In this document: one piece after another, positions 9,001 to 64,000 of the stretch
Layout: the number at the start of each line of letters is the position of its first letter
How positions within the stretch are numbered: the stretch's first letter is position 1
From: Rhizaria sp. SCN 62-66
Taxonomy: Eukaryota
Direction: 5' to 3'
Assembly: GCA_001724265.1 (NCBI GenBank)
Contig: MEDY01000054.1
Location: forward strand, 1 to 64,000
DNA length: 64,000 nt
Translations under genes and position numbers: made by a program
Notes under the pieces: generated by a model
The model's database searches: none
What the model was told of the DNA's origin: nothing
What the model saw: the letters and a program-made list of their open reading frames with translations, nothing else

Positions 9001-9169
9001 AGGACGCAGAAGGTGAGAGCGGCACCAGAGGCACGCGGCGCGCGTGCGGGCCGGCCGCGGAGGGCGGGGGCGGCTGCAGTGGCGCCGAGGGGGGCGAGAG
9101 GAGGGAGCGGGACGGGGGCGCCGAGGATGCGGCGCTGGGAGGCCCGTGCGCCGCAGGGGCGTAGGACAT
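2..9169 (-). CDS. Giant low-complexity (Ala/Ser/Thr/Pro-rich) hypothetical protein, >=3,056 codons, 3' end beyond the window; two in-frame TAG codons (8507-8509, 7721-7723)
   Basis: ATG at 9169 (MSYAPAAHGPP). Track ORFs 8507..9280 and 7721..8482 share one frame and are separated only by a TAG. The same frame continues past the second TAG, and no stop-terminated ORF is listed in it down to the window edge (spot checks also found no stop). Contains poly-Pro and a charged AKAEAEA helix (~6790-6960). No recognisable domain. Confidence 0.8.
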
Positions 9170-19500: not shown

Positions 19501-20328
19501 ATGGACGCGATCACCCAACTACAGATGTACACCTTCACCTTGTCCTAGATAATTGCGACTGTGATCTCGTTCATTCACACCAACGGCCGTCTCACCCCTG
19601 CACAGGCGCGCGCCATCGACCACCTCGTCATCACAACCGCCGCCAACACTTCCGCAAACAACAGCGCCAACAACACCAGCAGCGCGAGCACCGCGTCGAC
19701 GGGCCCTGTGCTGGTGACGGCCAAGGGCACGCGCATTCCTCCGCTGACCAGGGAAGGCGTGGAACCCTTTCTCAACTTCACACGTCACCTCACCGAGCTT
19801 TGCGCCCACTACACTGAGCATTCCCGCGAAATCGCCGCTCTCGCCGCCGCGCTGCCCGACACGCTCCCCACGGAGGCGGTCACGATCGAGCTGCTGGCCG
19901 AGGCCAAGCGCGACGGCGCACGCGCGGTGGCGCGGCTGCGGCGCGCTGAGAAACGCGCGCAGTACTACCAAGAGAAGCTGAGGCAGGCGACCGCGACTGT
20001 GGCCGATGTGATGCTTGGAGTACCTACGACTGCGCATGCCGCGGCGGAACCTGTGGGGGTACCCGTGGGTGCCCACGGTCAGTTGGACGCCACGGGGGCG
20101 GAGAAGTGGGCGCAGCGGCACCGGAAGCGGCTGGCGGCGGGTGATGACAGCGTTGCTGACTATACACGCATCAAAAGCACGAGCAACCAACACACCAGCA
20201 ACACTAATAAGAACACAAACAACACGTCTATCAGCATCATCAACGGCAAGGATAGTGAGAACGCGAGCAATGACGCGAACACGGGTGTCGCCAGTGCAAT
20301 GACAGGGCAGCAGGGCATGTCTGACTAA
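19501..20328 (+). CDS. MED21: Mediator complex subunit 21 (Srb7), 275 aa, with an in-frame TAG at codon 16 (19546-19548)
   Basis: Begins MDAITQLQ (family signature MxDxLTQLQ). Later EIAALAAALPD resembles DIDVLIDSLP and is followed by a coiled coil. ATG 19501 is in frame with track ORF 19561..20328 across a single TAG. Ends in TAA. Confidence 0.85.
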
Positions 20329-20676: not shown

Positions 20677-21475
20677 TCACCACTCTCGTTGCGGCTTGCG
20701 AGACTCCTTCCGCTCTTTCTGCCTCTGTTTCTCAGCTTTATTGCGTGCGTCAGACGCGGCCTTGAGGCGGCTTACTTTCTCTTTCTGCTCTGCTGAAGTC
20801 TCTTTGGGCACCACACAGGCCTCCTGGATAGCCGCGTAGAGCTTGGACACGCACTCATTGAGGTTCTGGCTCTGCACGCGGTGGTCGTCGGCGGTCAAAA
20901 CAACCTCAACACCGTTCGATCCAGAGTTGCCTGAGCCGTTCTGAGTAAGATAACGGCGGAAACCAGGGTTCGCACGCAGCCTGTCCTTCACCACAGCCGG
21001 GAGCCAGCCCGCGGAGTTGAGCGCAAAGCGTAACTCGGCCTTGGAGTTGGTTTTGTTGACGTGTTGGCCGCCGGGGCCGCTGGAGCGAACGAACGAGCGC
21101 TCAAAAGAAGAAACGGGGATGTCAGCGAGCTTGAACGACTGCGCCCACTTCTCGATGTCGCGGAATTGCTCTGTCAACAAAGTGGGGCAAAACGTAATGC
21201 CATAGCGAATTGGTTGTGAGTTGGATATCTAGCGTTACATGTGTTGTTTTAGTGACCTGATGCAAGACAGGAGTAAACGTACCTTCCTCTTCTCGGGAGA
21301 AGCGTGAGAACCGAGATAGAAGTGTGAGTGTCACAGCTGGCAGCGCGGGGCCCACAACTAGCAGCGGTGTGTTAAGACAGGGCTGTGGAGATGAGGGAGA
21401 ACATGGGAGGACACGGGCGACGGCGGCAGGGAAGGTTGCCGTTGACGCACCAAGAGCCCTGCGGAGCCTGAGCAT
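20677..21475 (-). CDS. ICT1: ICT1/ArfB(YaeJ)-type codon-independent peptidyl-tRNA hydrolase (RF-1 GGQ domain), probably mitochondrial, 228 aa; exons 21475-21283, 21170-20677
   Basis: SFVRSSGPGGQHVNKTNSKAELRF, RVQSQNLNECVSKL, basic C-terminal tail and an Arg-rich presequence-like N-terminus. 112-nt GTACGT...CAG intron. Ends in TGA. Confidence 0.92.
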
Positions 21476-22099: not shown

Positions 22100-25000
22100 A
22101 TGTCCACCGACGCGGGCTACTCATCCGGCTCTGCCCCGATGACGGACGAGCCGTGTCTGTGGTGCAGCTCCGCCGGCTGTGAAACCTGCGACTACACAGG
22201 CTTCGCTTCCTCATCCTCGTCTTCGTCTGCCGTTGTGACTGGCGCTGGTGGGTACCACTCCCCCGCCGCGGCCGCTGACGGCGATGACTTCGGCGCATAC
22301 CAGGCCTCCGACGGCTTCTGCAACAGCAGCATCGGCGGCAACGGCAACGGCGACGGGAGTGGGAGTGTCGCCGCAGCAGCTGATGATCCGTGCATGTGGT
22401 GCAATGGTGCCGGTTGCGAGGCCTGCCAGCCCGCCGTCTCCGCCCCCGCCCCCGTAGCCGGATCCTCCCTGCGCTCCCCGGCGCGCTCCATCCACGGTTC
22501 TCCGGCCCTTGCCCCCGCCCGCCCCCCCGGCTCCCCCGCGCTTGTCGGCATCGAGGCTGACTTCGCCGCCGCCGCCGCCGCCTCTGCTGCCGGCGTCGTC
22601 GCGAAGCCATCCGCGCTCGCCGTCGCCGCCGCCTGCACCTGCGGCGCCTCTGCGGCCGCACTCGAGGCAGCGGTGGCGCGCCGTGAACGCCGCTTTGGCG
22701 GATATAACTGGCATCCTGAGCGGCCCTACCGCGCCGCTGACGACTCTGATTCAGACGACGACTGCAACAACATTATTAGTGACGATGACGACAGCGGCGC
22801 CCTTGACATGGAAGACGGCTGCGCTAGTCATAGCCTCGCGCGTAGCAATGGCAAGCGCCGCCGCCGGTCCCGCGGTGTCGCGACGGCTTCCTCCTCGCCC
22901 AACGGCTCCGGCTCGAGCTCCAGCAGCGCCAGCGCCAGCGCCAGCGCCAGTGCGTTTGCGTTCGACAACACCGCGTACTACGACGACGAGGACGAAGAGG
23001 CGAATCAAAACGCCTTTTTGGTGAACAGTGCTGAGTGTTTCCGTGATGACGACTCTGTGGCCGAGGAGGATCGCGACACCACCAGTCAAAGCACCACAAA
23101 TGACGGTGTTAGTCAGTGGCCGTATGACGGACTGCGGCTCAACGACATCGCTCATGACAAGCGCTGTGCGAGTTACGCTTACCTCCACCCTTCCAGCAGC
23201 AGCAGCCACGACAGCACTAGCGACGTTGACGACGATGATGATGATGCGGCCAGCGTCAGTGTTGGTCGCGTCGCTCGCGCCGCTGCGTCCCGCACCGCCG
23301 CATCATCAGCTGCTGCGTCTGCGAGCGAAGCCAAGAGCAACAGTCTCTCAACCTCAACCAATGGCTGCGGCGGTGGCAGCGGGAGCAACAACAACACGAT
23401 GACGTTCGCGGCCCCGGCGCCGTTGACTCTCGGCGTCTCTCTCAATCTCTTTGACGCCCAAGGCAAAAACGCAGCCGCTGCTGCTGCCAAGTCGGCCCCT
23501 GTCGCGCCTGCTGCGGCGACCGTGTCTATCTCGGCGCTGGCAGCCGCCTTTGCCCCGCCCCCGCCGTTCCACAACGTTACCACCCATGGCCTCGTCGCCC
23601 CCGGCTCCCGCCCCCGCTCCCGGGACCCGGCCTCTGTGGCGGCCCTCACCCGCCGCGCAGCCGAGTCTCTGTCCACGGTTCTCTGCACAACGGTCGATGA
23701 CGCGGATGTGCTGCTGCGGCGTTATGACTGGGACGCGCCGCGGTTGATGCGCGACTGGGTGGAGCGTGATCCGGACACTGTGCGCGCCACGACCAACACG
23801 GCGGACCCGCGGGACCGTGAGAAGAAGGAAGTTGTATGGTCGCGGGATACCGACGCCGCGGGCAAAGAGAAAGAGCTGGTCATTTGCTGTGTACCTTACT
23901 GCGACGCGGTTCCGAAAAAAGCCACCGAGCAGCTCGCCTGCGGACATGCGATGTGTACGGAGCATTGGCAGAGCTTCATCGACAGTGAGATGCGCAATCA
24001 GGGCCCCGGCGCGGTGCTGACCACATGTCCCGGGTACACGTGTGAAGCCAAGGACTGCATGCACCGCGGCAAGCTGTGCAAGTGCAAACAGCTCGTGCCG
24101 CAGTATGTGTTCCGGAAGTACCTCAAGAGGGCGCAGAAGGCTGCGGACGCTGAGCGCAGGCGGCGCGCAGTGAAGGCGATGGAGAAGCGCACACAACAGC
24201 AGAGTGATGCGAGCAACAATGACGACAATAAGAGCCCGAGCCGCGCGAGCGAGAACACTTCCGCCGCCGATAAGAATAAGAACCGTGCATCTGCTGCTGC
24301 GGGCGATGCTGTGGTCGATGACAGCGACTTGCTTTTCTCAGACGCTGTGGCGCGGTATGATAAGTATATCTCGCGCTCTGTGGCGAAGTCGTCTCCTGCG
24401 CACACGCTGTGCAGTAACCCAGAGTGTGAGTGCCTGATTGAGCGCCACGCGGAGTCCTCGCTCGCCATCCATAAGGTACGGCTTATATTTGATCAAATAC
24501 CATTTGAGATGTCTGCGCTCTTTTATGGGGTTTTGTTTTGTTTTGTTTTGTTTTGTTTGATTTCTCATTCATACGTCTTGCTTTTGTTGCATAATCTTTG
24601 CTTTTGACGTCTTCGTTGCTCCAGTGCGATTGCGGTACTCTGTCATGCTTGCAATGCGGCTACGCTGGCGGCCACGTGCCATGCCCGTGTGATTTAGCTA
24701 AGATCTTCCTCACACAGACCGACTCTGACGCCGCCAGTCTCCGGTACGTTCGCAAATCAAGCTAAAACTACAATACTTCTGTATTCTTCATTTTCCTGAA
24801 GGAAGGTTCTCTCTTATCACTATTTCATTTTTTTGTAACCTCACATATTCCCTCTCAAATTGTTTCGTCATTGTCACTTGCAGTCTGATTGAGGCGACAA
24901 CGAAGCGTTGCCCCAAGTGCGAGACAGCCATCAGCAAAGACAAATATTGCAACCACATGCAATGCACCCAGTGTAAGTTCCACTTCTGCTGGCTCTGCAA

Positions 25001-36500: not shown

Positions 36501-39500
36501 CCGCGCTGGCGCCCGCGGCCGCAGTCGCCGTCGCCGCCGCCAACGCGTTCCTGCCCTGGGCGACCGAGGGCGCGGGCGCCGCGGGCGCTGGCACTGCCGG
36601 TTCGCTCGGCATCGGCTCACTCTGGGCGTCTGCCTCCGGTGGCGCGGCCGCGGGCGGCGGCGGTGGTTCCGACGCCACCGCGGCAGGCACCGGCGCGGCC
36701 GCGGGCTCCGCGACAGGCGGCGCCACGGGCGCGGGCGGCAGCGGCAGCAGCAGTGGCAACAGCGGCGGCGCCTCGTCCTCCGTCTCCGGCTCCGGCCCCG
36801 GCAGCGGGCTCTCCGGCGGCGCGCTGGCGGTGTTTGGCGCCCGCGCGCGCGGCGTCTCCGGTCTCCCACTGACCGGCGTCTCTGCGTCCGCGCGACGCGT
36901 CAACTACTTCGCGCACGGCATTAACATCACGTTGTACGCGCACGCGGCGGACTTCACGGCCGCGCGCGGTCGCTTCCGCGGCTGGGCTGTCAGCGCGTTG
37001 AGCTCGCCACTTGCTGGTGTATCGCCCGCCGTTGTCTCAACGCTCTCCAACGCGCTTGCGCCGTCGTCGTCTCCGTACGCGGCGGCCGCAGCGGGCTCCA
37101 CTGCGTCGCCTTCGGCCGCGGCCGCAGCGGCTGCGCTGAGCGCAGCAGTCGCTGCCGCCGCAGCCGCGTCTGGCTTCGGCGCCGGCGCCTTCTCCGCCGC
37201 GGCCGCTGCGGGCGGCACCGGTGTTTCCGCCGCTGCCGCCATGGCCGCAGCTACCGCGCTTGTTTCCGACAGCGATTCCGCCGTCGCCGCCGCGGCCACG
37301 GCCGCTGTGGCGTCCGCGCTGGCCGCGTCAGGCCGGTTCTCGTCCTCTGCCGCCACCGCGGCCGCCGCAGCCGCGTCCGGCGGCGGCGCGACTCTCAACG
37401 GCGGCACCGCGGCAGTAATCGCCGCCGCCACCGCCACTGTCGCGGGTCCCTCAGCGTGCACGTTGGCCTCCTCCGCGACCGGCGTGGGCACAGGCGCGGG
37501 CACGACGCTCGACGGCAGCGCGGGCGCCGAGGCCGCGGCGCTGGCGTCGACGGTGATCCCCACGGACCCGCTGCTCGCGGTGCTGCGCGCGCAGCTTGAG
37601 GGCTCGATTGACGACGCTGTGTTCAACGCGAAGCTTAAGGACTGCGGTATCTTGCAAACGAAGGATGTGTCGCAGTGGAATTTCCCACTGATCTTGCACT
37701 TGCTTGAGACGGTGTTTCCGGTCAATCACGCGCTGTTTGTCGCCACGCTGACCAAGACCAAGTTTTTCAAGCGTCTGTTGTCGATGCTGCGGCCTGAGAA
37801 GCGCATGTTCTCAGACTTGGAGTGGGCTCCGATGCACTTCATCCTCGGCAAGGTTGCCGCACAGCTCTTCACTGTGCTGCTGATGTACGCTGAGGGACGC
37901 GAGTACGTCTTCTTCACCCAGCTCGTCGAGCTCATCTCCGGTCTGCTTATCGAGGAAATGCAGCGCTCAGCGGCACTGGCGCAGATGCAGGCTTCGGCCC
38001 GCGCGCGCGCTGCTGCGGCCGCCGCTGCGGCCGCCGCCGCTGCTGCTGCCGCCGCGGCTGCTGCTGCAAACTCCGGCTACGGTGGCGGCGTTTCGACCCA
38101 GCAGCAAATCGCGCTGCCCCGCTACACTGGCGGTCCGTCTCCGTCGGTGTCGCTGTCTTCGGCGCCCGTTGCAGGGAGCGGCGCGAATCACAGCTCGTCG
38201 CCCGCTTTCACGCCCGCGACCGCGGCGCCTGCGTCTCCTCTGGTGGCATCGTCCAAGCCGCGCTCGTTCTTGTCGCGACTGTCGTTCGCCACGCTCCGCG
38301 GCTCCTCCGCGTCCACCGCTGCCGCTGCCGCCGCTGCCGCCAACGGAAACGTCACCGGCCGCGCCACCGTGTCTGCTGCACCGCAGTCAATCACGAACGC
38401 GAGCTTCTTCGACTCGTTCGAGCCCATCAACGCGCCGCCGCCGCCGCCTCCGCTGCCCGGAATGAGCGGCTCTGTCAGCGCCAGCGGTGCCACCGGTGTC
38501 AGCGGCAACACCGCTGCGCCGTTCTCGCTCGCCTCGCTGGCGCATCTTAACCCGACACGCGCCTCTGTCGCGCCCGCATCGTACGACGCGTACTGGTCCA
38601 CGGGCGCCGCGGCGGCTTCCGCTGCCGCCGGCTCCGGCGCCGGTGGGCAGTACACCTCAGCGCTCGCGCAGTCCTTCCTGGTCCCGGCCCCGCTGGACCT
38701 TCCCCTCGCGGGCGCGGCGGCGGGCGCGGCGGTCACCGCGGCCGCCGCCGCCAACGCAGTCGCGGCCGCGGGCGCGGGACTCGTACCGTATACTGCGGGC
38801 GCGACCGGCGGTGCCGGCGGCGCGGGCGCGGACGGTAGCGGCGGTGCGGGCGCCGGCGCTGGCGCGGGCGGAGACGCTGGCACGATTAATGGCAGCTCTG
38901 TGTTTGCGCATTTCACACATATTTCGTCGACGATTAAGACGATGCGCAAGTTCCGTCCCTTTTCGCGCCAGTTTGTCACCACCAAGATGGCCCGCGAGTA
39001 CATTACGCTGCTCGGCATTCTTACTTCTTCACACGTACGTTCCGCAACATCAATCGGCTTACATTTTAATATAATTTTCTGCTACTTTTAATATCTTGAG
39101 TTTTTTAATTCAATCTCACGTTTTTAACTCATGTTAACTATTGTTTTCGTATGTTTTAGCACGGCACCGCGCTGCTGCACGCGCACGGCGTCTTCGCCCG
39201 CCTGCCCGTGTTCGCTCTGACACGCTCCAAGCTGTACCTGCTGCGCGCTTTCGCTCACTCGCTCGACTTCGAGGCCTGCGCCCCGGCCCGCGCCGTGCTC
39301 GAGTCGTGGATCCTCATCGGCTCCGATGACGCCCGCCGCGAGCTCTTGCCGCTATTGTCGCATCTCTCGATCACGCTTGCGCCGTGCTCCACCGCGGCCT
39401 CGCCTTCGGGCGCGGCGTTTACGACCCCCGGTCTCGGCCCCGGCGCCGGCGCAGCGGGCGCGACGGGCGCGGCCGGGGCGTTCGCGCGTTACTCGGTCGG

Positions 39501-51102: not shown

Positions 51103-51502
51103 GCAGACATAATTATCTTATCATATCAGGTTCTTGCCTCGATCTGAGGTCCTAACCATAGAAGTCTATAGAAAGTATTAGTCCGAAGTTATCTTATTTT
51201 ATTGTCTCGATATGAAGTTAAAAAAAGTCGAATATATTTCAATTAATAAATCATTACACTATTCATAAAATCAACGCTGAATATGTCATTGTTGTAGTTG
51301 TTCTGTTGTCACATACAAAGCATGTCGATCGTCTTGATAATGTTAATACTACAATGTTTCGTCTTTGTGTTCTCCTTTCGCCTGGCTAATACAACTCCTC
51401 TATCTAAGATTTGGGTGCAGGGCCAATATTTTCGTTGACTGTAAGTTGATCAGTTAGGTGTATTGTCGAGTGTTATTTAGTGTACACAAGTTTCGCAAGA
51501 CA

Positions 51503-51520
51503 ATCGGTTTATATCCTGAA
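51503..51520 (+). promoter_or_regulatory. Candidate TATA-like core promoter motif ATCGGTTTATATCCTGAA upstream of the 51661 gene
   Basis: Near-identical to 21944-21961 and at the same spacing from the start codon. Confidence 0.4.
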
Positions 51521-51660
51521 TTATATTTTCGAACTATGAAGTTGAACCTCTTCTAATTTGAATCTCACAGACCACCCTTGACCAACACACCGACAGCCTC
51601 CTCTTTCACTTTCTCACAGCCCCAGAGCAAGGTTATCCCTTGATCTTGCGTTAAGACCGC

Positions 51661-54600
51661 ATGTCGGACGGATTTTCGACTACATCGTCGCTTGGGGCTG
51701 GCTTGTTTGACGCTGATCTTGCTCGCTGGCGCTCTGGCGGCACCGGTCTTCCCACCGCCTCCGTACGGTCTGCCACAACGCCGCCCTCACCAGCGACACC
51801 TGGCAGCGTTGCCGCAGCTGCTGTCGACTTCATTTCCCCATCGCAGGTCCCGATTACAGTCACCAGCAGCAGCCCTCACTGGACACACCACATTGCCCTC
51901 GCAGTCCCGTTCTCACCCGCCCCGGCGGCTGGAGCCCTCTTCTCGTCTCCAGGCGCTGCCTCCGCTGTCTCCGCTGCTTCCGCATACAGCGATGACCCCT
52001 CAGTGCACTCCCTCGTCTCTGCTACGCCTTCGGCCACGTCTTCTGCGGCAGCGCCGGCTCCCGCGCGCTATGAGGAGTGCCTTTCGTTTCCCAACAGCAG
52101 CAGCCGCGCCAGGCTCGCCGTCCCTCCAGGCGCCCTCTCTTCGACCACCATCTCAACGGCAAGCCACACTGCGAGTCCGCCGCCAGCCCCGGTCGCTGCG
52201 CTGCAGTCGGCGCCGCCCGTTTCTGCTGCGTTGCTGGCGCACGCGCTGACGCCCTCTAAGGCTGGGACCGCGAGCGACGCGATCGCTGCCATGTACGCCC
52301 GCATCGCAGCTGCTGCTGCTTCGGCGACGGCGAACAGTGCTACTGCGCGCGCCGCTGAGGGCTCAGGCTCAGGGTCGGGGTCGGTCACGGGGGGATCAAA
52401 CTCTGCCGCGAGCTCTAGTATCGGCTCGCGCGTTGTATCTCCAGCGGTGTATGCGGCGTCCGCAGTGCCCGATGCAGCTGTTAACGCACCCGCTGCGACT
52501 GCAACTGTGCCTTCTGTCTCCGTCCAAGCTCCAGTTGCAGCACCTGCGTCCGCATCGGCATCAGTGTCGTCCGCCTCGTCGTTTCATTCGCCGACGCAGT
52601 TGCAGCCACAGCTGCAGGCTCTGTTTCGGCTTTCTACTGCTGCTGCAGCTGCGCCGACTGTGAGCCGAGGCGAGAGTGCTGATGCGCCGTTGTCGCTCCC
52701 AAAGTTCCAGTTTCAGTCGCAAGCACCACCGCAGCAGCAGCAGCCGCAGCAGCATCAACAGCCCCCGGTGCAATCGCAGTCTCAGTCGCCGACGCACGCG
52801 CAGCCGTCTCACTTGCGCTCGCTGTCGCAGCCTCGGCTGCCCTTCGTTGCATCTGCCTCCATCAAGCAACAGGAACAGGACTTGACGCCGTCGCCGCAAG
52901 AGACTGCGACTGGTGCGGGCAGTGACACGTTGCAGCTCCATCTGCGCACTGCGCCAGTGTTGCCTGCGGCAGTGTCCGAAGCGCTGAACGCGACCTACGA
53001 TCACAGCTTCGCTCACAGTCATGCTCACAGTCACTCACCGTCGACTGAGACGGCGGCGGTCGGCTCGACACAGAGCCACTTCGACAATCACGAGCTCATG
53101 GCAACGACCCGCACTGGATTTGCTCACCACGCTTACACTCATAGCGACGAGGCCGCCGCTCCTTGTGCTGCTGTTGATAACGTTAAAGCCAATTCTAGTG
53201 CCGTGCGGGCAGATCTCCATGAGACTGGGTTCGCGGCTTCTGCGACTGGTTTCCAGACCAACGTGCAGCCGCGACTGCTCACGGTCACTTCCCTGCTTAA
53301 CACATACGGCCCACCCACCGCTGCGGCACATCTACCGCAGAATAACAATGTTTCGCAAACGACCTCGTCGTCGTCTTTGTCCGAATCATCAGCGTCGTCT
53401 TTGTCGTCTCTGGCACCGCTCTCGGACTCCGCATCTGCAGCCTCTGACTCTGGCCCTGCCGCAGCGCTGGTGGCACCGCTGACGTCGGCATCAGCGACAC
53501 TTGCCGAGGCCTATTGTCTTAGTGCAACGAGCCGCTCTGCCACGTCAAACAATATCACGCAAACCAGCGTTGCACCTGGCATGAACCGTAGTTTGGCCCA
53601 CTTACATGTGCACAATGACAATATCGCGAACAACCATCACTCGGTTGGCGCGGCGTACACCCCTGGCTTTCCTTCGCTCCCTGACTCAGTTGCTGATTCC
53701 GCTCTTCTTGCGGCCGCTGCGTAGCCGCAGCCGCAATCGCGATCACAACAGAGACTGGGCTCCGCGGCCGCGGCGGCTGGGTTTGCGCGCAGCGTGTTTG
53801 TCCCACTTACGGCTTCCGCGTCTGCGCTCCTGAGTGCGGCCGACGAAGCCCTTGAGCGCGCGCTCTTCCATGGTCTCTACGCGATCACCGACGACGACAA
53901 CAACAACGCCAACGAGCACGGGGTTGACGACGACGTGGACGATGACGGCGGCTACACTGACGTCGCCGACGCCGCCGATCTTGCGTCGTCTTACCCTCTC
54001 GTCGCGGCGACCTCGGCTGCGGACATGGCTGCTGCCCTGCGCCAAAGCGCGCTCGCGGCCCGCAGCCACCTGCGCTCTCTGTCGCGCGCGCACCGCCGCC
54101 GCGCACTGGCCGCCGCGCGCGCATGGCTGGACACGACTGCCCGCGCCGCGCTTGAGAACGAGCGCGCGCGCGCCGCCAACGCGCTCACCGCCGCGCTGGC
54201 CGCCGCGGAGGCGACCGCGCGCGAACAGACACGCGCACAGTGCAGCGAGGTCGTCGCAGCATGGGACGCGCACGGTGCGGCAGCGCGTGGGCAGTTGGTC
54301 GCGGACTGGGCGCGGCGCGGGCCGGAGCTGCTCGCCGCGACGACCGAGGCGAAACGCGCGGAGTGGACGCAGCGGCTCGCGCAGCTCGACGACGCGCTCC
54401 GTAGCGAAGCCACGGCCGCTGTGGCCCGTGCCAGCGCCGAGGCAGAGGCCGAGGGCGAGGCGCGCGCGCTGGCGCTGCGGACCGAGTGGGCGCGGGACTG
54501 TGAGCAGGCCACCGCGGCCGTGCGCGCTGAGGCGGAGGCCAAGACGGAGCGGTATGCGGCCGAGCTTGCCGAGGCGCTGGGCGCGCATGCGACGGCGGCG

Positions 54601-56028
54601 CGGGAGCGCGCGGCGACCGCTGCGGAGGCCGAGGGCGCGCGCCTGCTGGCCGAGGCTGAGGCGGCTGCGCGTGAGGAGACCGCCGCGGCGGCCGCGATCG
54701 TCCGCGCCGACGCTGCCACGCGTTTTGCAGCCGCCGCGCGCGCTCTGGAGGAGCACGCTGCGAGCGAGCGCTTGGCCGCGCGCGCTGCCGCCGCTGCGGA
54801 GGCCGCTGCTGAGGGCCAGGAGCAGCTGCGACAGCGTCTAGTCGTGCTGCGCGCGCGCGCCGATCGTGACCGCGCCGCGGCGGCCGAGGCTGCGGCGGAC
54901 GCGGCCCGCGCTGCGGCAGCGCGGGCGCAGGCCGAGGAGGAGCAGCAGCTGCAAGACGCGCTGGAGGCTGAGGCGGCGCGCGCGCGGGGCGAAGTCGAGC
55001 GCGACACGGCCGCTGAACTGGCGCGGATGCGGCTTAGCTTTAAAGCGCGGCTGGAGGAGGCCGGGCGCGCGGCGGAGGCGGCGGCGCGCGCACAGGCGCA
55101 GCGGGCGCTGAACAGTGAGCGCGCGCGGCAGGAGCTGGCGTTGTGTCAGCACGTTGCTGCACGCAAGGCGGCTGCAAGCGCGGCCGTCGTGAAAGAGCAG
55201 GAGCAGGCTGCCGCGCTCAGGGCAAGTGTTGGCGCGCATGCTAATCGCGTGAATGCAAGTTCTGTGGGCACTTGTGGTTGCGGCTGTGAGGCGACTGCTG
55301 TGCAGACGCAGAATGCTGGTCCGCAGTTACAACAGCGTTGCGCGTAGTCGCAGCCGCCACATCCTCAGTCTGTGTAGCATTGCGCAACGTTAAATGCACA
55401 TTGCTACGGTCACGCTCACAATCATCACCAGCAGGTGCACCAGCAACAGCAGCAGTCCTGCCAGCAGCAGCAACACTCATGCCCTCAGCACCACACGCCG
55501 TCCTGGTGCACTCAGCAGCAGCCGCATCAGCACCAACACTGCCACTCGCAATCTCAGCAGCCACACCCGCAAGCTCAGTATCAGCAGCGTAGCATCTAGT
55601 GTTCTCATTCACGTCAGCAACAGCAGCTGCCGCAAACTCTGCAGACTGCAATCGCCGATAGCGCAGAATGCATGCGCCCGAACTACCCGACGCAGTCTCC
55701 CGTCGCTGTCGCAATAGCCGCGGCGGCTGCAGCAGCTGCCGCCGAGGCAACTGCCAATGCGATCGGTATCTTGCCCACAGGCATCCCGTCCCGCTTCGAG
55801 ACTGTGTATCCGCGCGTCGTCACCAGCCTGACTGCCGCCGTGACTGTAGCCAACGCCGCCAACGCAGCGACGAACAGTCGCTCTGCGAGGACTGAAGTGG
55901 TATCGAAACCGACTGTGGCAATGTCAAACAACGCAGTGAGTGGTGTGAACGAGGATGATGACGACATGTATGTTGCTTTTTCGCTCCGTGGCGCGCCTTC
56001 GTTGACCAGTAGAGTGGTGATGTACTGA
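51661..56028 (+). CDS. Hypothetical protein, ~1,455 aa: Ser/Ala/Pro-rich N-terminus, Ala/Glu/Arg coiled coil, Gln/His/Cys-rich tail; four in-frame TAG (53722, 55345, 55375, 55597)
   Basis: Track ORFs 51661..53724, 53794..55347 and 55672..56028 are all in one frame. Hand translation of the gaps shows only TAG interruptions. Ends in TGA; a GTATGT near 55968 could be an unrecognised last intron. Confidence 0.78.
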
Positions 56029-56522
56029 CGTATGCGCATTTTTATCAGTTTCACAAGTCGAAATCGAGTGATACATAGCATTGTTTTCAAGACTTCGTTT
56101 TCAAAGCAAAGGGATACAGGGAGTTAATGAAACGATTCGTACCCGCATGTACGTACGTATTTAGTATGCAACGAACATGACTAAAGTGCCCCAACATGGA
56201 CTAAATACATCGAATATAAGTAGTCTAATCGTAGTAACTTTATTTTCTTTATACGCAAACAATGTCGATGTCGAAGTCAAAACACATGACTGACCGTCAG
56301 TTTGCAGATTCAACCCAGTCGATTGTTGTGGTACCAGCACTAAGGCGTGTGGACATGCACGCTGCGACCGTAGCCATGCATGAGGGACAACATCCGGAAA
56401 AGTAATATTCTGCCATCAACACACGCAATCATCCACACCGCCTCTTCACTGCTTACTTGGCCAGAGGTTGGATTAATAGAAGGGAGGCTCCATCTATAGA
56501 TAGATCCAGTTGCGCGATGTGT

Positions 56523-57659
56523 TCACTTGCGCGACTCAAAGGGGCGGCGGATCAGGTAGATCTTGATCATAAACGCGGAGAGAATTACGGCGAAGTTCGC
56601 CAGTCCCCACCAGAACACACGGTCGTTGGTCGACTCGGTAGCTGTTTAAGGAGTTGCAAAGAGACCATAAAAGGACCAGAAAGACGCGAAAATTAGGGAT
56701 GATGTTAAGACTAATCCAAAAAATACGCGGATAAGGTTTAGATATCATATATATAACATCTCAAGTTGAACAAAATAATCACGCCTCCACTCAAACAAGT
56801 TGTAAATAATGTGCGAGCAATAGATTGCGTGAGTGTAGTGATACGTACTGGCCTGGCAAGTGATGATGCGTGCACGCAGATAGTGGTATCCATCAACAAA
56901 CTTGCGCACCGTCTCCGTGAGCCCCGCGAGCGCGCGGTCCAGCGGCTCCATGTGGTTAGCCTTGGCACTCTGGTACTTGTGGAGGTCGCTGCCGGCGTAG
57001 ATGTTGAAGGAAACGACCTTGGCTGTGAGCGTCGACATTGAGTTGCTGAAGCACACCTGGTGAATACCTACGAAAGCACAATAAAAAGAAAAGACGTGAC
57101 ATACATCACACCGATGCGCGAGCGTGAGCGGGGGTTGTTAGAGCGAGATATCAAGAGAGACAGTCAAAGTCACAGCGACAGTGAGGGGAGAGATGTAGAC
57201 TTTGGTGCGGACGTACCGGGGGCCTGGGCAACGAACTGGAAGGCGCCCTCAGTCTCGCGCTCAACCTCGTAGACAACCTTGCCATCGGGGCCGAGAACCT
57301 AAATATGTGTGCGGACAAAGCAGCAGCGAAAGCGAGGGAGAGAGTGATGAGAGTCAGCAAGCAGTCGGCGTTGAGAGATGACACAGCAAGATACGACCAC
57401 GATATGAACGCGTTGGATGCATATGGAAGGGAAGCGAGTCGGCGGAATAGGCACAACGGGGCGATTGAAATAGACGCACCTTAACATTAATGTCGAGCAT
57501 GCCACCGGCGAGGACCTCGAAGGAGGAAATCATGCGCTCGTACTTAGCAAAAGACTCGAAGAAGCACTCCTGATTCTTGGCAGGCACTTCGACGATGTAT
57601 CCGTGCACCGCAGATGCAAAAAGCATAACCGCCATCAACACAGCAGAAATAACCTTCAT
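56523..57659 (-). CDS. p24/emp24/TMED-family COP-vesicle cargo receptor, 199 aa; exons 57659-57480, 57298-57217, 57067-56849, 56641-56523
   Basis: Signal peptide; GOLD domain (ECFFE, FEVLAGGMLDI, GPDGKVVY, CFSNSMSTLTAKVVSF); coiled coil; ESTNDRVFWW; TM helix; tail IRRPFESRK. Exon lengths sum to 600 nt. Ends in TGA. Confidence 0.95.
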
Positions 57660-57961
57660 CGTGACTTGGTTCGGCGTTACACTCAGCAGATCCGTCAGAT
57701 TTCATCGTCGAAAGCAAGCCCTTCGTCACTGCCAAACGGGCAGCCCAAACCCCAGCGATCCACCACCGCAGACTGGCAGCCGGCCCACAGTCACCCAAGC
57801 TCGACAGATTCGGGCTTTTCCACGGTCTCTAACTCAACAAGACACGCATGGACTTGAGTTATTATTGTGTATAAATAGACTAGATAAAACATTAAATTAC
57901 AAAAACTACGTAAAATTGGCACATGTGATCATATCCCATCGAGTCCGGCTGCAGCGAGCGT

Positions 57962-59930
57962 TCACCGACGGCCGTTCTCACGTTCCGCCGCCGCTGCCGC
58001 TGCCGCCGCCGCCGACTCCTCCGCCCACCCCTTAACTGCCCCACCAGCCTGGTACCCATCCCTCGCGTTGCGGTAGTACCCGCCGTTGGGATCCCCCGCC
58101 TCCTCCATAGTAACCGCCGCGGCCTGCTGCTCCGCAGCGGCAGTGCGTTCGGCGCGCGCACCGACAGCGCGCCGCCACACCTGCCCCGGCACGCCCGACC
58201 CCGCGCTGGCGCCGCCGCCGGCGCCGTTGCTCCCGGCTGGCGCCGTCGCGGCGAAGGGGTTCGTGCCGGCGGCGGGGACGAAAGGCGCGCTAGCCAGGTT
58301 GCCGTAGCTGCCGAACCCGATCGGATTGCTGCCTGAGAGGGCGTTGCCGTGGCCGGAGGGCGCGACGTCGACCGTGGGCAGTGTGGAGCCCACAGAGGCG
58401 CCGGGCGCGCGCGGGAGGTGGCCGAAGCTGCTCACACCCGCGTTCGCAGCCCTTGCAGCGTTGTGGTTGTTAGCGTTGTTAAGAGGGGTCATATCAGGAC
58501 TGTAGTCGTCGACGTGGTTGATCTTGCCGGCACGGAGAGCGGCGCGCGCGGCGGCGCGGGCGGCGGCGCGGGCTTCGCTGTTGGCCGTGCTGCCGGCGCC
58601 TTGCACTTGCACGTGGGCCTGGGGGGCGGGGGCCAGACCCAGGGCGCGGGCAGCGGCGCCGGGCTGAGCGGTGCCAGCCTAAAATCGCCGAATAATGGAG
58701 AGCAAAAGAGAGCATATATGCGTGGGAGTTTTCAAATAAAAATAGGAATATACTACACGTTTTACGTTAAGATAAACGCAGACAAAACGTATCATCCTTA
58801 GGGAGTGTAATTTACAGATTTTCCTTAGTATCTTTGTCTGACACACGTACCTGGTATGCTGTGTCGGGCAAGTAGCCCACACTGGCGCGATACGCCTGCT
58901 CCACGCTCGCGCCCACAGTCTGCAGCTTCGGCCCCGCGGCACCAGACCCAGAACCAGAGAGCGAGTTTGCGTACCCGTGACTGTCGATACCGCCGACACC
59001 GCCTGCGAATTGCGCAGTGGAGCCCCAGCCGGCCATGCGGTTACCTGCGGGGTTGCCTGCTGCCGCCACCGCACTCTCGCTGCCGCTGTTGGCGCGGCTT
59101 TGGTTGTATTTCTCAACGAGAGCGCGAGCGTTGTCGTCTTCCTTGATGAGCTCACGGATCAATGCCTCTTTGTTGGCAGTCTCAAGTTTGTTCACCAACG
59201 CCGTACGCACGCCGCTCATGGTGTCGTTAAGGTTAGCCGAACCCGCATACTCGATCTTATTGGGGTCAGACATCCGGAACGCCGGTGGATGCGACCGATT
59301 GCGTGTGTAAAGTAGTTCGTAGTAGGCGCGAGCCGCGTTGCGGACAGCCTTCTGCTGCTCTGGCGGCACGTTACTCCCGTCAGCAACAGCGGCCAAAGCC
59401 GAAGACCAGGGGTCCGCGACGTCCTCTGGCAGCGGGGCACCGTTGAGGATCGTCAGATCGATCAACCGGTCGTAAATCTCGCGGGCCTGGGGTGGGGCGG
59501 CGTTGAGCTTGGGAGTGTCGCCGCGGACCCGGCGCGCGAAGTCGGCCTCGGCGACCTCGCGGGAGTAGTCCGTGGTTAGAATCTCGCGAGCAAACTCGCT
59601 GCTGGTAAACAGCGAGCACATGGTGATGAACGCGGCCGCGCCGGCGCCGAAGCGCCAGCTTGCTTTGGTGGCGAGGTTGGCCTTGAGGCGGGCGTATAAG
59701 GACGCGAACGCCTCATGGGGGTCGCGGTGGCCGCGCGAGAGCGCGAAGTTGGCCACGCGGGACCGCGCCGTCGCCGAGGCGCGCTGTGCGGCGGCTGAGT
59801 AGGCCGTGAAGCGCGCGTGCCACTGCGGGTAGCGGAGGGAGGCGGCCCCGGCGAGGGCACCTGCGCGGGCGGCCAGGTCGCGCAGCTGCGCGGAGAGCGC
59901 GTCGAGGAAGCGGCGGTACGCGTCGGACAT
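57962..59930 (-). CDS. Hypothetical protein, ~598 aa; exons 59930-58851, 58678-57962
   Basis: Track ORFs 58812..59930 and 57962..58612 are joined in frame by an AT-rich GTACGT...TAG intron (58850-58679). Helical N-terminal half with one hydrophobic segment; Gly/Ala/Asn-rich C-terminal half. Ends in TGA. Confidence 0.8.
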
Positions 59931-61075
59931 GACACAAAGGGCAGTCTGGAAGGGCGCGAGTGGCTTGTTGCGAGAAGCAGCGACGCAGCAGCAGGTCTTG
60001 CTTGTTGTTGTTGTGTTGTGTTGAGTTAGCCGCTGGAAGAGCTGAGGGAGAGGGTCGAGAACGGAGTGTTTGCATGAGATGCAAGGGCGCGACTGTGAGT
60101 AGAATAATATAGCAGCTCAAATTTTGTAGTAATGTGCACTCAATTTACAGACATTAAAGTCAGGGTTGACGACTGAATGGGGTGTATTCGAACATGTTCG
60201 GAGTTCTGTTCTTCCCAGCAGCGGCAGCAGCAACGGTTCCGAAAAAATGGAGTGATAGTCTCCGACCGTTTTGTCTGACAGTGAAAATAGTGCCAGATAG
60301 AGACCTGTGAACGTCTGGGTGAGCTGTAGCAGATATTCATAACTGTTCCCCGTTATATTTAGTCCCATCGTTGCTTTATATTGCGCATTTACGGACTCCT
60401 TGCCGCGAACGTGAGAGGTTTGCACGAGGCAGTGGAGGATGAACTGCACACCATATCCTTCGCTCTCTCTTTCCTTGCCCTGCAATAATATCATGACGTA
60501 TGAACCTATATCTGGAGCCTCGCATTTAACACAAGTGAGTGCACCCGGTGGCACGCCTCAAACTTGCTCCATGGTCGCTCTCCTGCGGTATCTTCCCAAC
60601 TTGTGCTTGGTGACCGTTGAGACAAACCTCACATTTGCTCATGCCCAAGTCTTCTCTCGACGCTCGCCAAGCGCCACCATAATCTCCATGAGACACATAA
60701 CCACGCATTCCACACACGATAGCTCACAATATTTACCTCAACGTGTATATTATGTGTTCAACATTTGTTTTCCCTTGCAGCGGCGCGTTGCTCGCCTGCT
60801 TTCCCTTCCCCCCTTTGCTTTACCAAACCCGAACTACAGAGAGCGCAGAGCAACACCATCGCATCCGTGCCGTCTCTCTGCGCGCGCGCCTGCGTCTGTG
60901 TCCCCACGTTGCGAGCATTAACCTCCCCGACCGACCGGGCCTCGACACAACACACGTGAACTACATCACTAGTGACACACCTGAGTGGCTGAGCGCACGC
61001 GCCTTTCGTTCAAACCTGGCGGTGCCCCCGCCCCTCTTTCTGCGAACCGCTGACTGGCGTTGCTGACTGTCCGCG

Positions 61076-64000
61076 ATGTCGTTCATCCCGCCCTCGCACC
61101 TGGGGACGACGATGGAGCGTTTCGAAGTCGGCCGCAAGATCGGGCAAGGCAGCTATGGAAGCGTTTTCCTCGTCCGCCGCCGCTCCGACTCGGCGGTCAT
61201 GGTGATGAAAGAGCTGTTCATCGATAATATCGCGGAGAAGGAGCAGGCGGCTTTCTTCAAGGAAGCGGAACTCATGGAACGCCTGAGTCACCCGTCCGTT
61301 GTCGGGTACAAAGAGTGGTATGTCGACAACGAGGCCGGTGCGCTGTGTATTGTTATGCACTATTGCGAGCGGGGCGACCTCACTAAGGTCATCAAAAACA
61401 GGAAACGTACGTGTTTTTTTTTTTGTATCACAAATCACGTCAAGATTACGTCCTCTATATGTATCATCCTCTTTTGCAGCAATGCCTGTTTAGACTTTGC
61501 TCTTACTTGTCCACACCGCTTACTTGATCTTTGATGTTATACTTGTCACACATGTTTTGTTGTTAACTTACGAACATATATACAGCGGGCAGCGTAGACG
61601 AGCGCGCCGTTTTCCAGGCCTTTATCCAACTTGCCCTCGCACTTGAATACTTGCATTCTAAATCCATCGTCCACCGCGACATCAAGTCTGGCAATGTGTT
61701 CATCACACAGGGCATGATGAAGCTTGGCGACATGGGCATCGCGAAGGGTACGCTTTCAGCCTGATTTACCACGCATATAATCGCTCACCGACGAGACTTT
61801 GTTAAATTGAATGAGAGTTCTGTATTTTCTATCTTGTTTCAACATTTACTTCATTAGATGTTCATACCGTTCACTGATCTCACTTTTATTGCATTTTTCA
61901 ACTGTGTTCAGAGCTGACTGGCACTTCCGCGTTCGCTCAGACGTGCATCGGCACTCCGTATTATATGTCCCCCGAACTCTTCCGTAACGCCCCCTACGGC
62001 GCCAAGTCAGACGTCTGGGCTCTGGGCATCGTGATTTACGAACTGTGCACCCTGAAACACCCGTTTGATGCGCAGTCAATCTCGGCGCTCGCGACCAAGA
62101 TCCTTAAGGGCGTGTATGAGCCGGTACCGATGGCGTATTCGCGTAATATCAGGCTTTTGGTGAAGAAAATGCTCACGCTGGCGCCCGAGGGACGCCCCAC
62201 CATCGGTACGTTTGCCGTATCACTCAAACAATGCCCTAACAAGAGCGACACACTGATTATCTGTTCTACACTACGCATTTCATCGTTCACTATTTCTTTA
62301 ACACATATTTTTAAATCGACTTAAGACATGCCAACTCATTTATGATACTTTTCGTCGCTTATTTTTTGTTCTCGCGAAACTTCTCTAGCCGAGTTGCTGC
62401 AAGTGCCGTTTGTCCGCGTCAAGGTGAATGACTACGTCACCGTGCTTTGCTACGAGCGTGCCAAGTGCCTCCACACCGCCATCGCCGACTGTCTCCCGCC
62501 CGGCGCGCTGCTAGAGCGTGGCTTTGACCCCGACGCGCCCCCTCCGGCCGTCGCTCGTCCGGCCCCCGCCGCCTCATCATCGGACTCTGCTGCCCCAGCT
62601 GCTTCGAGCGCGGCCGCGGCTGGAGGGCGTGCGAGTGTACGGGGGGTCGCCGGCCGCGGTGCCGCCGCACCCTCTGGCGCCGCCTCCGCCCGCCCTGCCG
62701 CGGCTGCCGCCAACAGTGCCCATGCGGCCCACGCGTCGAACGCGGCAGCGGGCAGTGACGCGAACGGCCCGATCGCGTTCACAGGCGTTGTGAACGAGCA
62801 CGAGTGGCTGTCCCTGATGCAGCAAATGCACCGGCTCGGCTTCGCCGACATTCAGAAGAACGCCCGCGCCACCATCGCGACGCACCTCACGACGTTCGCC
62901 GCCGCGGCCGCCGCCGTGCAGCCCGCCGCCGCCGCCGCTGGGGCCGCCGCGCCCGTGTCCCCGCAGTACGACGCCGCAGCGCTCGCGGCGGCCGTGACGA
63001 ATCACGATGTGCCGCTGGGGACTGTGGGCGCGATGGTGGCGGCCGCTGGGCAAGCCTGGGCCGAGTCACTTGACCCCAGTGGCCCAACTTACAGTGACGC
63101 TGTGAGGCGAACTGGCGCGCTCCGCTCTGCTGACGTCAGCAATAGTGGCAGCGGCAGCGGGAAGTTGCAGTCGCGATCTCAGTCGCAACAACGGGGATCC
63201 GTTGCGTTTGGCGCTCCTTCTCATAACAGCAACAATGCCGTTGACTATGGGTACAGAGGCGACGCCACGGGCGCACTGGGCGGACATAGTAACGAGACGG
63301 GGGACACCATGACGAGTACGTACGAAGCCACCGTGGTCGCCGGAGTCGGTGTCGGCTTGGCGGCAGCGAGCCTCTTCCAAGGCAACAGCAACAACAACAA
63401 TAACAACGGGAATAATATCAATAATGTGAACAATGGTGGCGCCAGGGCGTCTGGCCCCGCTTTGCCCACCTCTAATGCCAACGTCAATGCTAGTAATGGT
63501 AACGGGGCTCCAGGCGCGTTGCCGCACCGGTCGCGTCTGATGCCTACGTCTTCCTCAGCCGCGTTGCTCCCTGCTGCCAATATCAATAATGGCAATGGCA
63601 ACGGCAACGGCAGTCTTGGGAGCGGGAATGGGGGTGTATTCGACTCCATGGATGACCTACCGGCTCAGCTCAACGGTATGCCATACTCTAACAACAATGG
63701 CGTTCACAACGGCAATGCTGGTAATAGCCCTGCGTATGGTGGTGCTGCTGGCTACGGCGGCGATGACCCTGACTACGGGGCAAACGCCTACAGAGCCGGT
63801 GGTTACGCGGCGTACGACGCCTACAGTCCCGCTGGTGCCAATATCAATATCATAAACAACAACGGCAATGACAACGGTAATGGCAGTGGCAGTGGCAGTG
63901 GTAGCGGTGGTTATGCTGGTTACGGCGGAAACTACGGTATCAACCCCGTGTCCGTCCCCGGAGTCGGCGCCACCGTCACCAGCAGTGACGCTCTGCCCCC
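61076..64000 (+). CDS. NIMA-related (NEK) Ser/Thr kinase, 3' partial; exons 61076-61406, 61586-61747, 61912-62205, 62389->64000
   Basis: IGQGSYG, VMKE, LCIVMHYCERGDL, IVHRDIKSGNVF, KLGDMGIAK, AQTCIGTPYYMSPE, KSDVWALG, YELCTLKHPFDAQ. Three introns in frame; last exon open to the window edge. Confidence 0.95.

Follow-up and report, generated by a model that had tools for sequence, protein, structure and literature searches.

TAG is probably read as a rare sense codon, perhaps for glutamine, in a GC-rich nuclear genome

We analyzed a 64,000-nucleotide stretch of contig MEDY01000054.1 (positions 1 to 64,000, here called the window), which is nuclear DNA of an intron-bearing eukaryote rich in guanine plus cytosine (GC). 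Our subject is a forward-strand reading frame at 51661 to 56028, the target gene, in which the codon TAG occurs four times. We found that TAG is very probably translated in this organism. According to our model, the organism would translate TAG as a rare sense codon and keep TAA and TGA as terminators, and 51661 to 56028 would be a single intronless gene of 1,455 codons, whose lineage-specific product is probably for the most part disordered and coiled coil. The four TAGs of this gene would have originated from CAG by C-to-T transitions in glutamine (Gln)-rich tracts and would most likely insert Gln. The machinery might consist of a tRNA with a CUA anticodon or a near-cognate tRNA-Gln, together with a release factor eRF1 that performs poorly at UAG, as in UAG-recoded eukaryotes. 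Taken as a whole, the reading that TAG is a rare sense codon, likely for Gln, and that 51661 to 56028 is one gene is on balance the probable one.

The target gene starts with an ATG at 51661 and ends with a TGA at 56026, with 1,455 codons when TAG is counted as sense; its product is an orphan protein. We found that the only interruptions of this frame are the four TAGs, at residues 688, 1229, 1239, and 1313: TAG1 (53722 to 53724, LLAAAA[TAG]PQPQSRSQQ), TAG2 (55345 to 55347, QLQQRCA[TAG]SQPPHPQSV), TAG3 (55375 to 55377, HPQSV[TAG]HCATLNAH), and TAG4 (55597 to 55599, QYQQRSI[TAG]CSHSRQQQQ). An earlier, sequence-only reading of this DNA had reported these four positions and their peptide contexts, and both match the sequence exactly. 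Under translation table 11, the frame gives three open reading frames (ORFs), 51661 to 53724 (687 amino acids), 53794 to 55347 (517 amino acids, from a GTG start), and 55672 to 56028 (118 amino acids). With TAG as sense, the three merge into the TGA-terminated frame 51661 to 56028. A tract rich in Gln, His, and Cys (55348 to 55671, forward strand) becomes readable in the gene frame only in this way. As the sequence-only reading had said, this tract has no ORF in the gene frame; the table 11 ORFs there lie only in two other forward frames (55338 to 55592 and 55394 to 55717). The same reading had joined the three ORFs into one protein of 1,455 amino acids, and we reached the same result: the frame, the coding signal, and the GC-rich block all cross the TAGs, and RNA bridges TAG1. 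We regard the three ORFs as one gene because TAG appears to be translated in the organism, and the conclusion that the TAGs are read through within one gene is well supported.

We compared the stop codons of the gene frame with those of the other frames. Over its 1,455 codons, the gene frame holds no TAA, no TGA, and four TAGs, whereas the five other frames of 51661 to 56028 contain 17, 40, 21, 31, and 20 TAA plus TGA triplets. Thus, the frame is open to a greater degree than chance would give. Downstream of TAG1, the TAA plus TGA count is again zero in the gene frame, versus 11, 20, 6, 15, and 7 in the other frames. The GC-rich block is continuous from about 51650 to about 56030, with DNA rich in adenine plus thymine (AT) on both sides, and we found no AT-rich, intron-like GTACGT...YAG segment within it. 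The first in-frame ATG past TAG1 is about 100 codons downstream. We considered an intron that would remove TAG2 to TAG4 (GT at 55344 to AG at 55599) and rejected it by eye: at 256 nucleotides it would put the frame out of register, and it lacks both AT richness and a GTACGT start. Also by eye, the surroundings of TAG1 (53719 to 53736) and TAG2 (55342 to 55359) share the pattern GCGTAG[C/T]CGCAGCCGC[A/C]A, with 16 of 18 bases identical. A duplicated motif would explain this likeness, as would coincidence in DNA of low complexity.

Med21 is an essential, single-copy subunit of Mediator, and its gene in the window (19501 to 20328, forward strand; ATG at 19501, TAA at 20326) carries an in-frame TAG as codon 16 (19546 to 19548). 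Of all the TAGs, only this one falls where homologues can be aligned. With the TAG read as X, the Pfam family Med21 (PF11221) matched at 28.5 bits (E = 2.1e-6) over profile positions 1 to 143 of 144; without the first 20 codons, the match fell to 18.7 bits over positions 31 to 143. The sole relative found among 5.8 billion proteins, P0006, is 42% identical. We found that it aligns without gaps from Met1 through the 15 codons before the TAG, across the TAG position, and onward. There is no downstream ATG able to yield a complete Med21. A profile built from these two sequences gave three PDB matches, all of them yeast Med21, yet with E values of about 0.3. The AlphaFold model of Med21 was too poor to use (mean predicted local distance difference test [pLDDT] score of 56.8, with an N-terminus below 50). 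The Med21 fragment is present with the same sequence on seven contigs, always starting past the TAG, and cluster look-ups found no variants of it.

The third gene with in-frame TAGs, gene A (2 to 9169, reverse strand), is an orphan of low complexity that starts with an ATG at 9169 and runs off the window at its 3′ end. Its TAGs are at 8507 to 8509 (SRAKAA[TAG]DRATARA) and 7721 to 7723 (GTGA[TAG]STRTRAS), and neither TAA nor TGA occurs in the 3,056 codons that lie in the window, the gene being longer than this. We then counted codons over ten approximate gene models that cover 18,044 codons of the window. In-frame stops were seven TAGs, no TAA, and no TGA, and the TAGs fell in three of the ten genes (four in the target gene, two in gene A, and one in Med21). 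The rarest sense codons in the ten models are ATA (16) and AGA (17). Among off-frame triplets, TAG makes up 0.36%, TAA 0.49%, and TGA 1.59%. Since off-frame TAG is rarer than both other stops, the in-frame asymmetry is specific to TAG. In frame, TAG makes up 0.039% of codons, which is a depletion of about 9-fold relative to off-frame TAG. Eight gene ends could be defined, of which three are TAA and five are TGA; the lack of TAG among them has a P of about 0.1 if its share is assumed to be about a quarter. The counts leave aside the TAGs at 39157 to 39159 and within 58690 to 58700, which belong to intron 3′ splice sites (TTTTAG), and a TAG at the start of 20677 to 21234, upstream of an RF-1 domain. 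The uneven use of TAG is compatible with a reassignment that is leaky or young and under which TAG still does mild harm.

We trained a codon model on the other genes of the window and ranked the six frames in each segment flanking a TAG in the three genes. We found that the gene frame came first in seven of the eight segments. In the target gene, it ranked first before TAG1, between TAG1 and TAG2, and after TAG4, and in gene A it was the top frame in all three segments around the TAGs. We also looked for a readthrough signal, in the form of a 3′ context common to the sites or a stable RNA fold behind them, and found none at any of the seven TAGs. The base that follows TAG at the seven sites is C, T, C, T, G, A, and A, and the RNA folds of the 120 nucleotides downstream of all seven had z scores of −0.35 to +0.35 relative to shuffles. 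Site-specific programmed readthrough is disfavored on this basis. Since nothing marks the seven sites, a property of the translation system is favored over a property of the individual sites.

The TAGs are not assembly errors of a single data set. A contig from the Joint Genome Institute (JGI; L001) is identical to the window over 53476 to 55394, which includes TAG1 to TAG3. Logan contigs from two runs, X2 and X3, are identical to the window over 53448 to 56149, with all four TAGs included; X2 and X3 gave identical tables and are possibly duplicate filings of one data set. Run X4 belongs to a different study; its contig covering 52901 to 53913 has 10 listed differences from the window in 1,013 places, none of them in TAG1, which is common to both strains. 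A second X4 contig (55249 to 55700) spans TAG2 to TAG4 with five differences at unlisted positions. Divergence between X4 and the window is 1 to 3% over the target gene and its upstream spacer (51163 to 55700), with about 9% in 51411 to 51632, and is 0.1 to 0.3% in the downstream genes and spacers (55844 to 62500). In the region from 51163 to 55700, divergence either peaks locally or reflects an old haplotype. A metagenome scan with the target gene returned one contig, identical to the window, and hence no strain variation.

Transcripts came from a polyA metatranscriptome run (X6), in the form of contigs and not reads. We found one X6 contig (53648 to 54021) that is collinear with the DNA across TAG1 and free of gaps. 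Other contigs of this run cover the target gene at 51617 to 51863, 51908 to 52167, 52570 to 52787, and 54803 to 55179. X6 depth, which at 90% likeness takes in low-complexity matches from other organisms, was positive throughout the 12 bins that make up 51481 to 56052, and the three AT-rich bins next to them had no depth at all. The zero cover in the AT-rich flanks is consistent with the gene limits. The sequence-only reading had offered a transcript end after 53724 as an observation that would speak against read-through; instead, the RNA contig spans TAG1, and cover runs to the TGA at 56026.

Supposing that TAG is translated, we incline to Gln as the residue that it encodes. Within 10 residues of the four TAGs of the target gene there are 19 Gln residues in total. 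The probability of reaching this total was 0.011 for four random positions and 0.47 for four positions occupied by Gln. In contrast, none of 20,000 draws of four Glu positions reached it, and the corresponding values were P = 0.009 for Ser, 0.0002 for Leu, 0.0003 for Tyr, and 0.005 for Trp. We applied a similar context test to all seven sites, with each residue judged by the surroundings of its own kind. Gln was not rejected (P = 0.30), and Glu (P = 0.0004), Ala (P = 0.01), Asp (P = 0.02), and Gly (P = 0.04) were; the local Glu total at the seven sites was 1, versus 10.9 expected. At TAG1, the DNA reads TAG CCG CAG CCG CAA and can be taken as a Gln-Pro repeat. The 71 Glu codons of the target gene lie mostly in a Glu-rich central part, where none of the four TAGs is found. 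We set our confidence in Gln at a modest lean and no higher because the context speaks for Gln, the aligned column in Med21 speaks for Glu, and Gln is acceptable at that position. Gln is therefore our best guess and the leading candidate, mildly contradicted by the only conserved site. The sequence-only reading had taken the four contexts as pointing to Gln. Its placement of the TAGs in Gln-rich surroundings holds as a tendency, with Glu and Asp rejected by the context, and its naming of the residue is provisional. It had also counted an alignment of TAG to Glu or certain other residues in conserved proteins as evidence against Gln, and codon 16 of Med21, which aligns to Asp and Glu, comes close to this at a single site.

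Several observations weigh against our interpretation. The evidence for recoding consists of only seven TAG sites in 64 kilobases. The seven TAGs compare with about 570 CAG plus CAA codons, so that TAG would make up about 1.2% of the putative Gln codons, a much lower share than an established Gln codon should have, and the RICTOR gene of the window has no TAG in 7,806 codons, 221 of which are Gln codons. TAG is distributed heterogeneously across the genes (P = 0.0006 with codon numbers as weights and P = 0.03 with Gln codons as weights). Among one-step nonsense changes in these genes, 60 to 66% give TAG, which leaves P = 0.03 to 0.06 for seven TAGs out of seven. In the eighth of the segments flanking TAGs, the 83-codon Gln/His tract, the general codon model had no preference for the gene frame; when RICTOR's Gln-rich tract served as the training set, the gene frame scored +1.4 bits per codon, versus −2.05 and −1.49 for the two others. 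The Pfam scores of Med21, 28.5 bits in the window and 35.8 bits in P0006, are both below the curated cut-off of 37.3. The 10 listed strain differences, which fall in 52901 to 53721, comprise 3 synonymous and 7 nonsynonymous changes, where about 26% synonymous is expected under neutrality, and they give no sign of purifying selection upstream of TAG1. The X6 contig that bridges TAG1 has four unlisted differences from the window, and the RNA letter at 53722 is thus unread; it is also possible that DNA was carried into the X6 library. Finally, tRNA and Rfam scans of the window returned no matches, and hence no tRNA.

We weighed these observations, together with those above, under five other explanations. 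One of them keeps TAG as a sense codon and gives it a different residue, either Glu- or Asp-like or one of the one-step neighbors Ser, Leu, Lys, and Tyr. We think this unlikely. Codon 16 of Med21 stands opposite Asp in P0006 and opposite Glu in the three yeast Med21 sequences from the PDB, and by our own BLOSUM62 reckoning this column prefers Glu over Gln by about 2.5 bits. Neither gene A site (AKAA[TAG]DRAT and GTGA[TAG]STRT) has a Gln within 10 residues, and Ser, Leu, Lys, Thr, Arg, Pro, His, Trp, and Tyr survive the seven-site context test. Since TAG2 to TAG4 lie in one Gln-rich tract, the target gene offers effectively two independent clusters, and the context P values overstate independence. 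Excerpts of PMC11687900 describe UAG as Leu, Ser, or Glu in other eukaryotes. On the other side, Glu and Asp are the residues most strongly disfavored by the context, the Glu-rich central part of the target protein is free of TAG, and the stretch at TAG1 forms a Gln-Pro repeat. A single position on the surface of a helix in Med21 should tolerate Gln in place of Asp or Glu. It is less likely still that the code is ambiguous, with UAG terminating part of the time and a suppressor or near-cognate tRNA reading through, so that in-frame TAGs are tolerated in some genes. This would explain why TAG is avoided both inside constrained genes and as a terminator: it is depleted about 9-fold in frame; it is missing from RICTOR, separase, the RBR ligase, NEK, p24, and the ICT1-like gene; and it closes none of the eight gene ends. 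Ambiguous stop/sense codes exist, according to excerpts of PMC4967479 and 10.1101/2022.04.12.488043. In contrast, partial termination at codon 16 of Med21 would be costly, because Med21 is taken to be essential, and no context signal sets these TAGs apart. The present data are equally compatible with a leaky code and with full reassignment.

The remaining explanations retain the standard code. The TAGs could be nonsense mutations from CAG in decaying or truncated alleles, in which case the target gene would be either a pseudogene or the source of a truncated protein of 687 residues, with dead sequence behind it. Mutation from CAG to TAG fits the context of the Gln tracts equally well, since the TAGs are located where CAG is abundant, and seven TAGs out of seven are only mildly surprising under random nonsense mutation. 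The target gene has no homologue, its ratio of synonymous to nonsynonymous strain differences is near neutral, and it lies in the block that is 1 to 3% diverged between strains, versus 0.1 to 0.3% in the flanks. Nevertheless, we found this explanation improbable, in that TAG alone must then have disabled 3 of 10 neighboring genes, Med21 included. No frameshift is seen, coding signal and TAA and TGA avoidance continue past the TAGs, TAG1 is common to strains that differ at 10 of 1,013 places, X6 cover extends to the TGA at 56026, and divergence in the gene body (about 2%) is lower than in the upstream spacer (about 9%). Alternatively, the TAGs could be altered in the transcript, either by U-to-C editing to CAG or by removal in unusual short introns. 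The four unlisted differences in the RNA contig across TAG1 leave room for editing, and T-to-C is the commonest change in the X6 run (8 of 34 places). T-to-C is also the second commonest change in X4 (16 places, after A-to-G with 17), as strain variation would give. No canonical intron fits, with the introns of this organism being AT-rich and the surroundings of the TAGs GC-rich, and the RNA contig is collinear with the DNA at TAG1 without a gap. We consider both forms of this explanation very improbable. We give still less credence to the idea that the shared frame is a coincidence, either of three separate genes or of frames left open by chance in GC-rich DNA. The stretch from 53725 to 55344 is 70% GC and does hold several near-open frames, among them two reverse frames with two to six stops. 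Unlike every other gene pair in the window, the supposed genes have no AT-rich spacer between them. The distance of about 100 codons from TAG1 to the next in-frame ATG, the RNA contig that joins both sides of TAG1, and the lack of TAA and TGA over 1,455 codons also argue for one gene.

The metagenomes that match the window came from bioreactor, wastewater, and activated sludge. Besides Med21, we recognized genes for RICTOR, separase, an RBR/IBR ligase, a NEK kinase, an RF-1-domain (ICT1-like) protein, and a p24/GOLD protein. Exons are 60 to 75% GC, and introns are AT-rich, about 125 to 200 nucleotides long, and bounded by GTACGT or GTGCGT at the 5′ end and YAG at the 3′ end. Introns lie at 24600 to 24960, 39035 to 39159, 61407 to 61586, 61750 to 61911, and 62206 to 62389, with GTACGT and sometimes GTGCGT starts; two more with the same type of start lie on the reverse strand (58690 to 58848 and 10640 to 10735). 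A TTAAC or CTAAC-like motif is often found near the 3′ end of the introns. The uniform intron signature could serve to bin or identify the organism.

RICTOR (27557 to 51102, forward strand) appears to be one gene of about 7,800 codons, formed by two giant ORFs and a 125-nucleotide intron between them (GTACGT at 39035, TTTTAG at 39159). It is several times the usual length of RICTOR, inflated by low-complexity inserts of Ala, Gly, and Ser. We found no homologues of it in the length class searched, and an Atlas search with it gave only generic HEAT/ARM-like and RICTOR_N clusters. The RF-1-domain gene (20680 to 21225, reverse strand) has a GGQ motif and a Pfam RF-1 score of 63.4 bits and resembles mitochondrial peptidyl-tRNA hydrolases of the ICT1 type. 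It is not the cytosolic eRF1 and is thus uninformative on the recognition of UAG. The p24/GOLD cargo-receptor gene (56522 to 57659, reverse strand) has four exons, a lower GC content than its neighbors, no in-frame TAG, and a TGA end. A scan of the genome collection with the second RICTOR exon found no relative, and a scan with the NEK exon found only 18 bacterial kinase loci at 32 to 51% identity, none of them of this lineage. The genome and metagenome collections scanned gave no further DNA of the organism except one identical contig of 1.9 kilobases.

The target protein begins with a Ser/Ala/Pro-rich N-terminus of 690 residues, followed by an Ala/Glu/Arg-rich part of about 400 residues, the Gln/His/Cys tract, and a tail of 142 residues. 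From its composition, we read the Ala/Glu/Arg-rich central part as a coiled coil. No homologues of residues 540 to 900 were found among proteins of 800 to 2,547 amino acids, and a HMMER search with residues 514 to 1455 against 1.84 billion representatives returned only the 118-amino-acid ORF of the window itself. No Pfam family was found in the protein. For the C-terminal 142 residues, the highest score in an Atlas search was 0.76, and the Atlas model of this tail is predicted to be disordered (pLDDT, 0.31).

Programmed readthrough in organisms with the standard code typically inserts Gln, Tyr, or Lys at UAG. To our knowledge, it extends a protein past its normal end and does not interrupt the body of the protein. 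The present case resembles it in translation past an in-frame UAG and differs from it in having seven TAGs in three unrelated genes, with up to four per gene and no shared context or structure. UAG-only recoding is already known in other eukaryotes, and the window probably represents an additional case. Excerpts of PMC5304391 and PMC11687900 describe codes in which UAG alone means Gln and UAA and UGA remain stops in the fornicate Iotanema spirale, the ciliate Protocruzia tuzeti, and two phyllopharyngean lineages; in I. spirale, UAG makes up about 8% of the Gln codons (PMC5304391, in excerpt). Here, too, TAG occurs in frame, and TAA and TGA never do and close all eight gene ends seen. TAG is likewise a minor codon, with about 8% in I. 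spirale and about 1.2% here if it encodes Gln. Unlike in I. spirale, TAG here is much rarer and unevenly used, and its residue is putative. In our judgment, the window also differs from a ciliate macronuclear genome in its GC-rich exons, its AT-rich spliceosomal introns, and its very long low-complexity genes.

Other UAG-only codes assign Leu (in the rhizarian exLh and some phyllopharyngeans) or Ser (in Scotinosphaera), and an oligohymenophorean ciliate reads UAG as Glu and UAA as Lys, according to excerpts of PMC5304391, PMC11687900, and PMC10553269. In these codes, as here, UAG and UAA have independent meanings. In the excerpted account of exLh, UAG use differs strongly among gene classes; in the window, it differs among genes. 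In contrast to these codes, the context here disfavors Glu and leaves Ser and Leu, with too few sites for phylogeny-informed inference. Ambiguous stop/sense codons are described in excerpts for Condylostoma, Parduczia, karyorelict ciliates, and Blastocrithidia, in which UAA is both Glu and stop (PMC4967479, 10.1101/2022.04.12.488043, and PMC12153298). As in those organisms, a stop codon is read as sense within genes. Unlike in those organisms, TAG alone is affected here. The eight gene ends seen include no TAG, an outcome that fits both a single and a dual meaning of the codon. Those lineages have AT-rich genomes or were shaped by AT pressure, whereas the present organism is GC-rich. In Blastocrithidia, the share of recoded UAR codons drops steeply with GC content (PMC12153298, in excerpt), and this trend would fit the very low share of TAG here. 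We found no report of a GC-rich wastewater eukaryote with a recoded UAG in a literature search that left most subscription journals outside its reach.

Public gene calls for this organism (P0004, P0005, P0007, and P0008) are fragments made under the standard code. Med21 is called from a GTG past the TAG, the tail of the target gene is called as a separate protein of 118 amino acids, and an off-frame ORF of 107 amino acids is called on the Gln/His tract. Because gene callers that use the standard code split the genes of this organism, eukaryotic bins from wastewater would be misannotated.

The nuclear code changes rarely, and every independent case limits the ways in which capture of a stop codon can be explained. 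If our interpretation is true, the combination of a UAG-only change, exons with a GC content of 65 to 75%, and extremely rare TAG would bear on whether AT pressure and prior codon loss are needed for reassignment. We raise, as a speculative suggestion that we hold with little confidence, that the lineage has not been sampled before and is early in UAG reassignment, or is arrested at an ambiguous stage of it, in a strongly GC-rich genome and with none of the AT mutation pressure by which the Blastocrithidia case is explained. TAG may then already work as a codon in Med21 and other essential genes and no longer serve as a terminator, with a share of only about 1% among the codons for its amino acid. 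If true, the organism would offer a natural system in which an early stage of stop codon reassignment can be seen.

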